Position numbers: made by a program | Assembly: GCF_056712565.1 (NCBI RefSeq) | Contig: NZ_CM160072.1 | Direction: 5' to 3' (one strand) | Length of the DNA: 64,000 nt | Shown: one piece after another, positions 57,901 through 63,900 of the stretch | Position numbering within the stretch: the first letter of the stretch is position 1 | Layout: each line of letters opens with the position of its first letter

Positions 57901-60900
57901 CTTCAGCCACGGTTGCAGCGTGCTCACGTTTTAACCCAGCCTGGCAGAGTTTATTCTCGATTAGCTGGTGGAGTGTTTCCCGACTGATTTTCATCTGTCT
58001 TCCTTTTTAACGACGATGTGAAGCATGACTGCAATTAACATACAGGGAAAATATCTGGATTATGTGATCCAGACAGGCAAAAAAATATAGTTAGAATTTA
58101 TTTGATAATCCGCTCGCTTTTAACCTGGTTTTTAAAACAACCACGCTTATTAAAAAATAACGCGTAATAGCCCGGCGGTTATTTGAATTCTTTTGTTAAT
58201 AATCCCTGTGTGATATTCATCACCTTATTTACTCGTTGTCATCGATACCGTAATCGCCACATTAACACTGCTCGTGCAATTGCCATGGGTGCAATTTTTA
58301 AGGAGTTGTTATGATCCACGCCTTTATTAAAAAAGGGTGTTTTCAGGATTCGGTCAGTTTAATGATTATTTCACGAAAACTCAGCGAATCAGAAAATGTT
58401 GATGATGTTTCCGTAATGATGGGTACGCCCGCCAATAAAGCGTTATTAGATACTACAGGTTTCTGGCATGACGATTTTAATCACGCCACGCCGAACGATA
58501 TTTGCGTGGCAATTCGTAGCGAAGCGGCGGATGCGGGGATCGCGCAGGCGGTTATGCAGCAGCTTGAAGAGGCGCTAAAACAACTGGCGCAGGGTTCAGG
58601 CAGCAGCCAGGCGTTGACGCAGGTGCGTCGCTGGGACAGTGCCAGTCAGAAATTACCCGATGCCAATCTGGCGCTGATTTCAGTGGCTGGTGAGTATGCG
58701 GCGGAGCTGGCGAACCAGGCGCTGGATCGCAACCTCAACGTGATGATGTTCTCCGATAACGTCACGCTGGAAGATGAAATCCAACTTAAAACCCGCGCGC
58801 GGGAAAAAGGCTTGCTGGTGATGGGGCCAGACTGCGGTACGTCGATGATTGCCGCCACGCCGCTGGCTTTTGCTAACGTGATGCCGGAAGGCAACATTGG
58901 CGTCATAGGCGCTTCCGGTACCGGGATTCAGGAGCTGTGCTCACAGATTGCGCTGGCAGGGGAGGGAATTACTCACGCGATTGGTCTTGGCGGGCGCGAT
59001 CTCAGCCGTGAAGTGGGCGGCATCAGTGCGCTAACGGCGCTGGAAATGCTCAGTGCAGACGAGAAAAGCGAAGTGCTGGCATTTGTTTCAAAACCACCTG
59101 CCGAAACTGTGCGTCTGAAAATTGTTAATGCCATGAAAGCAACTGGCAAACCGACGGTGGCGCTGTTTTTAGGTTATACCCCGGCGGTGGCCCGCGACGA
59201 GAATGTCTGGTTTGCCTCCTCGCTGGATGAGGCCGCTCGTCTGGCTTGTCTGCTTTCACGCGTCACTGCGCGACGTAACGCGATAGCGCCTGTCAGCAGC
59301 GGATTTATTTGCGGTTTGTATACCGGCGGTACGCTGGCTGCTGAAGCGGCGGGATTACTTGCCGGACACCTTGGCGTGGAAGCCGACGATACCCATCAAC
59401 ATGGCATGATGCTGGACGCCGACGGACATCAGATCCTCGACCTGGGCGATGATTTTTACACCGTCGGGCGTCCCCATCCGATGATCGACCCGACCTTACG
59501 CAACCTGTTAATTGCCGATCTCGGCGCTAAACCGCAAGTGCGCGTGTTGCTGCTTGATGTCGTGATTGGCTTCGGTGCGACCGCCGATCCTGCCGCCTCG
59601 CTGGTGAGCGCCTGGCAAAAAGCCTGTGCCGCGCGTTCAGACAATCAACCACTGTATGCCATTGCCACGGTGACAGGCACTGAACGTGACCCGCAATGCG
59701 CTCGCAGCAAATCGCCACGCTGGAAGATGCGGGGATCGCGGTAGTGAGTTCGCTACCGGAAGCCACCTTGCTGGCTGCGGCGTTAATTCATCCGCTCCCG
59801 TCAGCCACACAGCAACACACACCGTCATTACTGGAAAACGTCGCCGTGATTAACATCGGATTACGCAGCTTTGCGCTGGAGCTACAAAGCGCCAGCAAAC
59901 CGGTTGTGCATTACCAATGGTCGCCAGTCGCCGGCGGCAATAAAAAACTGGCTCGTTTATTAGAACGTTTGCAATAAGGGGTTCCCATGTTTACATCAGT
60001 GGCGCAAGCCAATGCTGCGGTTATCGAACAAATTCGTCGCGCTCGTCCACACTGGCTGGATGTGCAACCGGCTTCTTCACTTATCAGCGAACTAAACAAG
60101 GGCAAAACACTGCTTCACGCCGGGCCGCCAATGCGCTGGCAGGAGATGACCGGGCCAATGAAAGGGGCGTGCGTGGGCGCATGTCTGTTCGAAGGCTGGG
60201 CGAAAGATGAAGCGCAGGCACAGGCAATGCTGGAGCAGGGGGAAGTGAACTTCATTCCTTGTCACCATGTGAATGCTGTCGGGCCAATGGGTGGCATTAC
60301 TTCTGCCAGTATGCCGATGCTGGTGGTCGAGAACGTGACCGACGGCAACCGGGCGTACTGCAACCTCAACGAAGGTATCGGAAAAGTGATGCGTTTTGGC
60401 GCTTACGGCGAAGATGTCCTGACTCGCCATCGCTGGATGCGCGATGTGTTAATGCCAGTATTAAGCGCGGCGCTGGGGCGCATGGAGCGCGGTATCGATC
60501 TCACGGCAATGATGGCGCAGGGCATTACCATGGGCGATGAGTTCCATCAACGCAATATTGCTTCCTCTGCACTGTTAATGCGTGCGCTGGCTCCACAAAT
60601 TGCTCGCCTCGATCATGATAAACAGCACATTGCGGAAGTGATGGATTTCCTCAGCGTGACCGATCAGTTCTTCCTCAACCTCGCGATGGCCTACTGCAAG
60701 GCGGCGATGGATGCAGGCGCGATGATCCGCGCAGGCAGCATCGTTACGGCTATGACCCGCAACGGCAATATGTTCGGGATTCGGGTCAGCGGGCTGGGTG
60801 AACGCTGGTTTACGGCGCCTGTAAACACTCCGCAAGGTCTGTTTTTCACCGGCTTCTCGCAGGAGCAGGCGAACCCGGATATGGGCGATAGCGCGATTAC

Positions 60901-63900
60901 CGAAACCTTTGGTATCGGAGGTGCGGCAATGATCGCCGCACCTGGCGTAACGCGCTTTGTCGGTGCGGGTGGCATGGAAGCGGCCAGAGCGGTATCTGAA
61001 GAGATGGCGGAAATTTACCTTGAACGCAATATGCAATTGCAGATCCCCGGCTGGGATTTCCAGGGGGCGTGCCTGGGGCTGGACATTCGTCGCGTGGTAG
61101 AAACCGGCATTACGCCACTCATCAATACCGGTATCGCCCATAAAGAGGCGGGGATCGGGCAGATTGGCGCAGGCACCGTGCGGGCACCGCTGGCGTGCTT
61201 TGAACAGGCGCTGGAAGCACTGGCTGAAAGCATGGGGATTGGTTGAGGAACGCACAATGACGATCATCCATCCTCTACTTGCCAGCCGTAGCGCACCGAA
61301 TTATCGCCAGTCCTGGCGGTTAGCGGGAGTGTGGCGGCGGGCGATTAACCTGATGACGGAAAGCGGCGAACTGTTAACGCTGCATCGTCAGGGGAGTGGT
61401 TTCGGCCCCGGCGGATGGGTGCTTCGCCGCGCGCAATTCGATGCGTTATGCGGTGGATTATGCGGCAATGAACGACCACAGGTTGTGGCACAAGGGATTC
61501 GTCTCGGGCGTTTCACGGTTAAACAGCCACAGCGTTATTGTTTGCTACGTATTACGCCGCCTGCGCATCCTCAACCGCTTGCCGTTGCATGGATGCAACG
61601 CGCGGAGGAAACCGGGCTTTTCGGGCCACTGGCATTGGCGGCAAGCGATCCGCTGCCTGCTGAATTACGCCAGTTTCGTCACTGTTTTCAGGCCGCGCTC
61701 AATGGCGTTAAGACCGACTGGCGGCACTGGCTGGGTAAAGGCCCCGGATTAACGCCAAGTCATGATGACACGCTGAGCGGAATGCTGCTGGCGGCCTGGT
61801 ATTATGGCGCTTTAGATGCGCGCTCCGGTCGCCCGTTTTTTGCCTGTTCCGACAATCTTCAACTCGTTACCACTGCGGTGAGCGTCAGTTATTTACGTTA
61901 TGCCGCGCAAGGATATTTCGCCTCGCCACTCCTGCACTTTGTTCATGCTCTGAGTTGCCCGAAACGTACCGCAGCGGCGATCGATTCGCTGCTGGCGCTG
62001 GGGCATACGTCAGGGGCCGATACGCTGCTGGGGTTCTGGCTTGGCCAACAATTATTACAAGGGAAACCATGAAAACACTGGTTGTGGCTCTTGGGGGCAA
62101 CGCCTTACTCCAGCGCGGTGAGGCGCTGACGGCAAAAAATCAATATCGCAATATTGCCAGTGCTGTACCCGCGCTGGCGCGCCTGGCCCGTTCTTATCGG
62201 CTGGCGATTGTTCACGGCAACGGGCCGCAGGTGGGGCTGCTGGCGTTACAGAATCTGGCGTGGAAAGAGGTAGAACCGTATCCGCTGGATGTACTGGTGG
62301 CGGAAAGCCAGGGGATGATTGGCTATATGCTGGCGCAGGGCTTGAGCGCACAGCCGCAGATGCCGCCTGTCACGACGGTGCTGACGCGCATTGAGGTTTC
62401 GCCTGATGATCCGGCGTTTTTACAGCCAGAGAAATTTATTGGTCCGGTTTATCAGCCAGAAGAACAAGAGGCACTGGAAGCGGCTTACGGCTGGCAGATG
62501 AAACGTGATGGTAAATATTTACGCCGGGTGGTAGCGTCTCCGCAACCGCGTAAAATTCTCGACAGCGAAGCCATCGAGTTGTTGCTCAAAGAGGGGCATG
62601 TGGTGATTTGCAGTGGCGGCGGCGGTGTGCCTGTGGCGGAAGACGGGGCAGGGAGTGAAGCGGTGATTGATAAAGATCTCGCCGCTGCGTTGCTCGCCGA
62701 GCAGATTAATGCCGATGGACTGGTGATCCTCACCGATGCTGATGCGGTATATGAAAACTGGGGAACGCCGCAGCAACGTGCCATTCGCCGTGCCACACCG
62801 GATGAGTTAGCGCCATTTGCCAAAGCCGATGGTTCGATGGGGCCGAAGGTAACGGCGGTGAGTGGTTATGTCAGAAGCCGTGGTAAACCCGCGTGGATTG
62901 GGGCGTTATCGCGGATTGAAGAGACGCTGGCGGGCGAAGCGGGGACTTGTATTTCGCTGTAGTGATTGGGGTATTTGGCAAGAATTAAGGCTCTGAGAAA
63001 GATTCCAAACCCCAAATAAGAACGCGGACAGTCCCCTCGCCCCTGTGGGGAGAGGGTTAGGGTGAGGGGGAAAACTGCTTGCGCATTAGCTTTTAAGCAG
63101 GTTTGTGCACCAGGTTAACTGAACTTGCTCTGCGCCCACATCACGCCGCTGGCATACTCCGGCGGCAGCAGTGGGATTAAGGCTTCCAGCGTCGCGGTCA
63201 GACGCGATGTGTCGCTGTCGGTCAAATTCAAATGCCCCACTTTACGGCCCGGACGGACTTCTTTGTCGTACCAGTGCAGATGCACAAGCGGCAGTTTCAG
63301 CCAGTCATAATTCAGATCGCTACCAATCAGATTGATCATCACCGACGGATTATTCACTACTGGTTGCGGTAACGGCAGATCGGTAATCGCCCGCAGATGT
63401 AGCTCAAACTGGCTGATGCTGGCACCGTTTTGTGTCCAGTGCCCACTGTTATGCACACGCGGAGCCAGTTCGTTGATCAGCAGACCTTGCGGCGTGACAA
63501 AACACTCCATCGCCATCACGCCCACATAGCTCAGCTCCTGCATAATCGCCGACAACATCTCTTCAGCTTGCGCCTGTTGCTGTGCATTGGCCTGCGGGAA
63601 AGCGACGCTGGTGCGCAAAATGCCGTTCTGATGCAGGTTATGCGTCAGCGGATAAAACACGGTGCTGCCATCAAAGCCGCGCGCGCCAACCAGCGACACT
63701 TCACCTGAGAAGTTTATGCCCTGCTCGACAATACATTCGCCGTAGCATTCAGCCGGTAACTGTTCGGTTTCATCGGCGCGTAAACGCCATTGACCGCGTC
63801 CGTCATAGCCACCAGTGCGACGTTTAACAATCGCCAGCTCACCTAAACGATCAAACACCGCAGGCCACTCGCTGTGTTCGGAAAGTAACTGCCACGGTGC

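Follow-up and report, generated by a model that had tools for sequence, protein, structure and literature searches.

The ylbE open reading frame of the window, i.e., of the whole 64,000-nt stretch analysed (contig NZ_CM160072.1, RefSeq assembly GCF_056712565.1), is, as judged from its sequence, very probably an ordinary, functional ylbE/allG, the second gene of an allF-allG-allH-allK operon. The apparent contrast with K-12 would then stem from an old layer of K-12 sequence, and a one-base deletion in allF (fdrA) would be the sole anomaly of the operon (Table 1). The function of ylbE/allG has been established since 2024, and intactness is the already known, normal state of the gene; it carries little biological weight here.

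Table 1. Features of the allFGHK region, with positions in the window.
Feature	Position	Strand	Remarks
allF-operon regulatory region	58108..58228	+	Coordinates transferred from the EMSA fragments of PMC12535856
AllS-binding fragment, by transfer	58108-58167	+	-203..-144 from the allF ATG; PMC12535856, predicted here
ArcA-P-binding fragment, by transfer	58169-58228	+	-142..-83 from the allF ATG; PMC12535856, predicted here
fdrA / allF (OXTCase subunit, succinyl-CoA-synthetase-alpha-like), frameshifted	58311..59977	+	1667 nt vs 1668
Private 1-nt deletion site	59696..59700	+	Relatives ATGCCGCTC, window ATGCGCTC; one C of CC lost at 59699
ylbE / allG (probable AllG subunit of oxamic transcarbamylase)	59987..61246	+	Intact 419-codon ORF, PF06545 match, K-12 orthology
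G5 homopolymer, ylbE nt 252-256	60238..60242	+	GGGGG here; G4 in the old K-12/W3110 sequence, giving the ylbE_1/ylbE_2 split
ylbF / allH, intact, 271 aa	61257..62072	+	Pfam PF11392 'AllH', 102.9 bits; K-12 length, 3 aa differences
ybcF / allK, catabolic carbamate kinase, intact, 297 aa	62069..62962	+	NCBIfam NF006926 equivalog, 616 bits; K-12 length, 6 aa differences

The uninterrupted ylbE frame described in the initial annotation was recovered at exactly the same coordinates in the ORF listing of the window, with an ATG start, 419 amino acids, a TGA stop and no break. By our own arithmetic, an open frame of 419 codons would arise by chance with a probability of about (61/64)^419, roughly 2e-9. 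The product matches Pfam PF06545 'AllG' (earlier name DUF1116, oxamate carbamoyltransferase subunit) over profile positions 1-215 of 215, with 326.7 bits (E = 7.9e-98), membership being assigned above the gathering score (cut-off 27). No second domain was found in YlbE by the Pfam scan at E <= 10, and no model for YlbE or YlbF was found in NCBIfam. In the relatives ATCC 11775, ZJ3920, and HS13-1 the ylbE product is annotated as the same RefSeq protein, WP_000495399.1, and the published ylbE forward RT-PCR primer (PMC9843812) is equal in sequence to window positions 59987-60008. PDB 3CLQ ('uncharacterized protein', 421 aa) is a full-length homologue of YlbE (E = 6.8e-112, residues 2-414 aligned), and the fold of the AllG family is therefore solved, although this protein was solved alone, without AllF and AllH partners, and its entry carries no assigned function. 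An AlphaFold2 model of YlbE, based on an alignment of 3 sequences, had a mean pLDDT of 39 and was discarded as unusable.

The comparison with K-12 depends on which K-12 sequence is used. The current MG1655 reference, NC_000913.3, carries an annotated intact ylbE (b4572, YP_009029994.1, 1260 nt, 419 aa), which is colinear with the gene of the window, with 33 substitutions and 0 indels. The proteins are identical at 415 of 419 residues (window to K-12: K38E, Q79L, M81I, and G355S), and 29 synonymous against 4 non-synonymous changes give a dN/dS of 0.04. The K-12 AllG (UniProt P77129) shares start, stop, PF06545 domain, place between fdrA and ylbF, and tight junctions with that of the window, the difference being that the upstream partner allF is frameshifted in the window. 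The proposal that an intact frame sets this strain apart from K-12 thus fails on direct alignment. The underlying description of ylbE as a frameshifted gene in K-12 is accurate for the W3110 record NC_007779.1, for three K-12 derivatives with old-style coordinates and for the older MG1655 reference, but not for NC_000913.3. In NC_007779.1 and the three derivatives, ylbE is 1259 nt long and flagged as 'frameshifted'; the W3110 allele (ylbE_1/ylbE_2), at the same locus, differs from the MG1655 v3 gene only at nt 114 (A instead of G) and in the G run (G4 instead of G5). The G4 frameshift falls after codon 85, and computational deletion of one G from the run in the window splits the frame into a 5' fragment of 86 codons and an open 3' stretch of 344 codons. 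This hallmark of the K-12-type pseudogene is not present in the window, where the run is GGGGG and the frame is open.

For the history of the MG1655 reference we rely on four papers and the W3110 record. Resequencing studies against the older reference treat ylbE/ylbE_1 as a pseudogene whose frame is regained by an A->G change at 547,694 and an added G at 547,831/547,835, and the intact allele is reported for MG1655 stocks and NCM3722 (PMC2973815, PMC5460176, PMC4759930, PMC3045373). Across E. coli, ylbE was found in 5,420 of 5,426 complete genomes at 95-100% identity, and in an evenly spaced sample of the genome matches, each of the 39 full-length ones spans exactly 1260 nt. A G4 probe matched at >=99% in only 5 of 5,417 complete E. 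coli records, W3110 being one of them, and all of these among the matches listed were K-12 records. Since the frameshift allele is confined to so few records, the intact ylbE is the norm of the species and no peculiarity of the strain. The K-12 contrast belongs to the old layer of K-12 sequence (G4 for G5), a reference sequence since corrected that survives in the W3110 record, and not to the strain of the window. As a matter of annotation hygiene, 'K-12 pseudogenes' need checking against the current reference.

The frame, family, and population frequency reported above, like the place and uniqueness of the allF deletion described below, come from the present analysis, and the enzyme function and regulation are taken from the literature. 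AllG is one of three proteins forming the oxamic transcarbamylase (OXTCase) AllFGH in anaerobic allantoin breakdown. This enzyme converts oxalurate and phosphate into oxamate and carbamoyl phosphate, from which AllK (YbcF) makes ATP when cells grow anaerobically on allantoin. The purified K-12 AllF-AllG-AllH has OXTCase activity, deletion of allF, allG, or allH lowers oxamate to 0-1.2 mM from 17.7 mM in the wild type, and plasmid-borne allFGH returns it to the wild-type level (PMC11326118). Supplying allG alone to an allG deletion left oxamate at 0 mM (PMC11326118, Table 1); that AllG itself is needed is therefore concluded from how the deletion behaves, from complementations with several genes and from co-purification of the complex. 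The genes allF, allG, allH, and allK are co-transcribed, with YbcF/AllK functioning as catabolic carbamate kinase (PMC9843812), and AllS and ArcA activate the promoter upstream of allF (PMC12535856).

The gene order allE-allC-allD / fdrA-ylbE-ylbF-ybcF is the same in the window and in K-12, with intact gene junctions, the ybcF start overlapping the ylbF stop (ATGA). The promoter is 97% identical to that of K-12: the allD-fdrA intergenic region (316 nt) aligns without gaps and with 9 substitutions, 8 of them within the predicted AllS- and ArcA-P-binding fragments. A consensus scan for sigma-70 promoters and terminators over the operon gave counts at chance level (3 promoter-like against 3.3 expected, 5 terminator-like against 6.4 expected).

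The lesion suspected in fdrA is real in the sequence of the window, where the gene is one base short and broken into two ORFs (58311..59744 and 59696..59977). Intact FdrA has 555 aa in ATCC 11775, ZJ3920, HS13-1, and K-12. The predicted AllF of the window consists of 463 native residues and a 14-aa tail, ARSKSPRWKMRGSR, with the stop ending at 59744. The break falls within the Ligase_CoA domain (residues 336-491), and the lost segment comprises the end of this domain and sequence conserved with the paralogue YahF. If the deletion is genuine, we infer that truncation of AllF would eliminate the oxamate branch or greatly weaken it, and translation of allG may also drop through polarity, as ribosomes would stop 242 nt instead of 9 nt before the allG start. 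The loss may be an incomplete null, because allGH alone on an allFGH deletion gave ~16% of wild-type oxamate (PMC11326118). With a real deletion, the source strain would count as a natural oxamic-transcarbamylase mutant.

The deletion was found in none of the three closest relatives, ATCC 11775, ZJ3920, and HS13-1, in which all four operon genes are intact. A 70-nt probe across the site gave no match of >=99% to the deletion allele in 4,822 genomes, the best match being 98.6%, which corresponds to the gap itself. Exact-match contig scans also returned 0 matches to the deletion allele, but were uninformative, as the wild-type positive control likewise returned 0. We found no lineage-shared disabling lesion in allFGHK, the sole lesion being this allF deletion, which occurs neither in the three relatives nor in the 4,822 genomes probed. 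Compared with complete genomes, the only other change private to the window is a synonymous G->A at 57281, 2.4 kb away. The window was also considered as the type strain ATCC 11775 with five G:C->A:T substitutions of its own, by mutagenesis or artefact. This description was rejected, as 4 of the 5 alleles also occur in other complete B2 genomes.

The allF deletion reflects either a mutation private to the strain or a mistake in the assembly, and it gives no evidence of operon decay. The initial annotation had regarded fdrA-ylbE-ylbF-ybcF as differently decayed in this strain, which finds no support, either for the strain or for its lineage, in a singleton lesion missing from the closest relatives in an otherwise intact operon. 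A lineage-specific decay of allFGHK, with ylbE lost in K-12, fdrA lost here and the oxamate branch dispensable, would draw on two independent frameshift alleles in public sequence (the ylbE G4 in W3110-type records and the loss of one C from fdrA in the window), either of which would disable one and the same enzyme (PMC11326118). We nevertheless consider it highly improbable: both lesions are extremely rare (G4 in 5 of 5,417 records, the fdrA deletion in 0 of 4,822 genomes), G5 is present in NC_000913.3 and in many independent K-12 assemblies, and the closest relatives retain all four genes intact. Besides, the dN/dS values of ylbE and of fdrA (0.11) indicate purifying selection and not relaxed constraint.

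A sequencing or assembly error, with the operon intact in the real organism, is a serious candidate that falls slightly short of an even chance. One base is lost in a short CC run, as a singleton among 5,426 complete genomes, and the three closest genomes, otherwise 99.99% identical over 64 kb, have an intact fdrA; the K-12 ylbE also shows that single-base indels can last for years in a reference (PMC4759930). On the other hand, errors of the long-homopolymer kind are not typically found at a CC dinucleotide, the assembly does not look error-rich, differing from each relative by a single indel over 64 kb, and the private synonymous change at 57281 fits genuine strain-private variation. A genuine and recent strain-private loss of function, to which we give an even chance, is the alternative to an error and is compatible with an ordinary allG. 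The observations listed in favour of an error count for it as well, and the intact ylbE, ylbF, and ybcF, with no secondary decay downstream, fit a very recent event, although fdrA is under purifying selection elsewhere.

YahG (b0321) of K-12, a DUF1116 paralogue, is 45% identical to YlbE over 415 residues (E = 5e-120), and in yahE-yahF-yahG-yahI it stands beside YahF (38% identical to FdrA), the DUF2877 protein YahE and the carbamate-kinase-like YahI. The cluster differs from the all operon in having yahE first in gene order, and YahG differs from YlbE in being longer (472 aa); ~53 aa extend its N-terminus and are homologous to the FdrA C-terminal tail. It could be imagined that the allF frameshift is genuine and that the intact allG and allH are retained by low-level work with YahF, which we regard as very unlikely. 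Such cross-work is hinted at by the residual oxamate formed by allGH alone in the K-12 allFGH deletion and by a 42-residue segment that is C-terminal in FdrA and N-terminal in YahG; if it were true, the source strain would offer a natural experiment on cross-talk between the paralogous enzyme sets all and yah. When the profiles of AllG and AllF were compared with each other, no relationship at the level of domains emerged (probability 5%). The same comparison pointed to the similarity between the FdrA tail and the N-terminus of YahG, which was confirmed by a separate test.

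The uninterrupted frame of ylbE (allG) lies where the initial annotation had placed it, both in the ORF list and in the raw sequence, and the gene is 100% identical to that of the type strain, ATCC 11775. Its product scores 326.7 bits with Pfam PF06545 ("AllG, oxamate carbamoyltransferase subunit"), for which the gathering threshold is 27. The structure of a YlbE homologue, deposited as an uncharacterised protein, has been solved (3CLQ, E=6.8e-112); an AlphaFold model of YlbE was too poor to use (pLDDT 39). The initial annotation also described ylbE as a frameshifted pseudogene in K-12, which holds for the W3110 record and for K-12 derivatives with old coordinates, but not for the current MG1655 reference. 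In NC_000913.3, ylbE (b4572, YP_009029994.1) is an intact 1260-nt CDS at 548357..549616, and a base-by-base comparison with the window (1260 nt each) gave 33 substitutions, no indels and four amino-acid changes, so that K-12 carries the same intact, colinear frame, the outcome that the initial annotation had named as speaking against its reading. MG1655 stocks and NCM3722 have also been reported to carry the ylbE+ allele (PMC2973815, PMC4759930, PMC3045373, PMC5460176).

Coordinates of the features discussed (window positions unless a record or stretch is named)
Feature	Position	Strand	Remarks
priC A4V	5922, codon 4	-	GCC->GTC
YadA-like autotransporter adhesin gene	31526-32542	-	internal stop
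allD V238V	57281, codon 238	-	synonymous G->A, GTC->GTT
fdrA 5' ORF	58311..59744		477 aa
fdrA 3' ORF	59696..59977		93 aa
FdrA tail, residues 513-554	59849-59974		downstream of frameshift; coordinates computed from frame
ylbE (allG)	59987..61246	+	single open frame, ATG start, 419 codons, TGA stop
G5 run, site of K-12 indel	60238-60242 (ylbE nt 252-256)		literature positions mapped onto gene
ylbF (allH)	61257..62072	+	full length, 271 aa; PF11392 "AllH" match
ybcF (allK)	62069..62962	+	full length, 297 aa; carbamate kinase equivalog NF006926 match
YahG residues 12-53	L009:7359-7484 (K-12 stretch with YahG)		counterpart of FdrA tail

Removal of one G from the G5 run breaks the gene into a 5' piece of 86 codons and a 3' open stretch of 344 codons, which corresponds to the ylbE_1/ylbE_2 layout. 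A 70-nt probe with the shortened run (G4) was matched at ≥99% in only 5 of 5,417 records, and the four 100% matches listed were W3110 (NC_007779.1) plus three derivatives of K-12 whose records use the old style of coordinates. In the two G4 records inspected, W3110 and strain CIT, ylbE is a 1259-nt CDS marked "frameshifted", and the MG1655 (version 3) and W3110 genes differ only at nt 114 (G/A, synonymous) and in the G run. The K-12 ylbE "pseudogene" is a legacy allele, restricted to records of the W3110 type. The frameshifted form (G4, 1259 nt) persists in RefSeq W3110 (L005:2285-3543, the W3110 stretch; record 547581-548839), where it may be genuinely present in W3110 stocks or may be a preserved old sequence error; G5 is found in MG1655 NC_000913.3 and in nearly all other K-12 assemblies.

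Across the species, ylbE was present in 5,420 of 5,426 complete E. coli genomes, with a coverage of at least 80% in 5,417. All 39 full-length matches in a sample evenly spaced through the ranked matches span exactly 1260 nt, and therefore none has a net indel. For ylbE, comparison of the window with K-12 gives a dN/dS of 0.04; for fdrA, the type strain against K-12 gives 0.11. Taken together, the strain survey and these ratios indicate that ylbE is normally intact in the species and evolves under purifying selection; its intactness is no peculiarity of the window. Intact ylbE/allG is thus the standard E. coli state, including the current K-12 reference; it is ordinary and its function is already published. 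Besides, in one complete genome, NZ_CP029741.1 (strain AR_0085), the match to ylbE (record 3803131-3803569) is limited to the final 35% of the gene and abuts fdrA in the annotation, which suggests a deletion or rearrangement within the operon of that strain.

The four operon genes are co-transcribed, and YbcF/AllK is a catabolic carbamate kinase (PMC9843812). Purified AllF-AllG-AllH catalyses oxamate + carbamoyl phosphate <-> oxalurate + Pi, and single deletion of allF (fdrA), allG or allH abolished or nearly abolished anaerobic oxamate formation from allantoin (0, 0 and 1.2 mM, respectively, versus 17.7 mM in the wild type; Kim & Kim 2024, PMC11326118). In the same study, plasmid-borne allFGH returned a triple mutant to wild-type oxamate, allGH alone restored ~16%, and an allG deletion supplied with allG alone gave 0 mM. 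The promoter is activated by AllS, binding at -203 to -144, and by ArcA-P, binding at -142 to -83 (both from the allF ATG; PMC12535856). When the window is aligned with K-12, the 316-nt intergenic region with this promoter shows no gaps and 9 substitutions, and the gene junctions (9 nt, 10 nt and an ATGA overlap) are the same in both. A consensus scan for promoters and terminators gave chance-level hits only.

The fdrA lesion noted initially is visible in the window, where the gene is split in two ORFs. One C of a CC pair is lost at 59699 (ATGCCGCTC -> ATGCGCTC) relative to K-12 and the closest genomes, and the predicted AllF product, which ends at 59744, has 463 native residues and 14 foreign ones instead of the normal 555 aa. 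The domains matched in fdrA are CoA_binding and Ligase_CoA, together with the FdrA subfamily of NCBIfam; the break falls inside the Ligase_CoA domain (residues 336-491), and sequence that is conserved in the paralogue YahF is lost. If the deletion is real, the distance from the ribosome stop to the allG start becomes 242 nt instead of 9 nt, which would probably reduce translational coupling to allG and could allow polarity. No other complete genome showed the deletion: the best fdrA matches were all 1668 nt (99.9%), a 70-nt probe spanning the site had no match of ≥99% in 4,822 genomes, and every one of the best 25-kb matches had one mismatch and one gap. With this frameshift a singleton and ylbF and ybcF full length, the proposal that the operon is differently decayed in this strain is not supported; the frameshift, which may be a genuine mutation or an assembly error, is not evidence for differential decay.

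The K-12 genes yahE-yahF-yahG-yahI form a set paralogous to fdrA-ylbE-ylbF-ybcF (YlbE vs YahG, 45% identity; FdrA vs YahF, 38%). There is homology between the C-terminal tail of FdrA and the N-terminal extension of YahG (BLASTP E=1.4e-6); their local alignment scores 67, whereas shuffled sequences score 21 ± 4 (0 of 2,000 shuffles reached 67). In the all operon, this segment of ~42 residues is therefore on one side of the gene boundary, and in the yah operon on the other. It may act at the FdrA-YlbE (AllF-AllG) interface or, alternatively, may mark a differently split ancestral fusion; the frameshift in the window takes it off AllF.

Over its whole length the window differs from ATCC 11775, ZJ3920 and HS13-1 by five, six and four substitutions, respectively, and by one gap each. 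Only the allD change and the fdrA deletion are common to all three comparisons. None of the complete E. coli genomes examined is identical to the whole window (1-64000), positions 1-25000 match perfectly in seven genomes, and the two YadA-like gene alleles match at 100% in several. A different set of alleles is shared with each of the three relatives, and therefore the source is a further member of the B2 clade: a natural strain very close, but not identical, to the type strain. That all five G:C->A:T substitutions relative to ATCC 11775 are private was ruled out, as four are common to other complete B2 genomes. Of the substitutions, the allD change alone is private to the window when these three genomes and K-12 are compared; the deletion in fdrA, also private, is 2.4 kb away. 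The YadA-like gene carries Q149* (CAA->TAA, 32098) and R52H relative to ATCC 11775 and UTI89; several further B2 genomes carry the same allele at 100% identity, and ZJ3920 and HS13-1 list the gene as a pseudogene ("internal stop"). The allele is therefore a shared natural polymorphism. The priC variant differs from ATCC 11775, UTI89, ZJ3920 and K-12 and is common to HS13-1, SF-468 and other B2 genomes, with HS13-1 annotated under a different PriC accession (WP_000859698.1).
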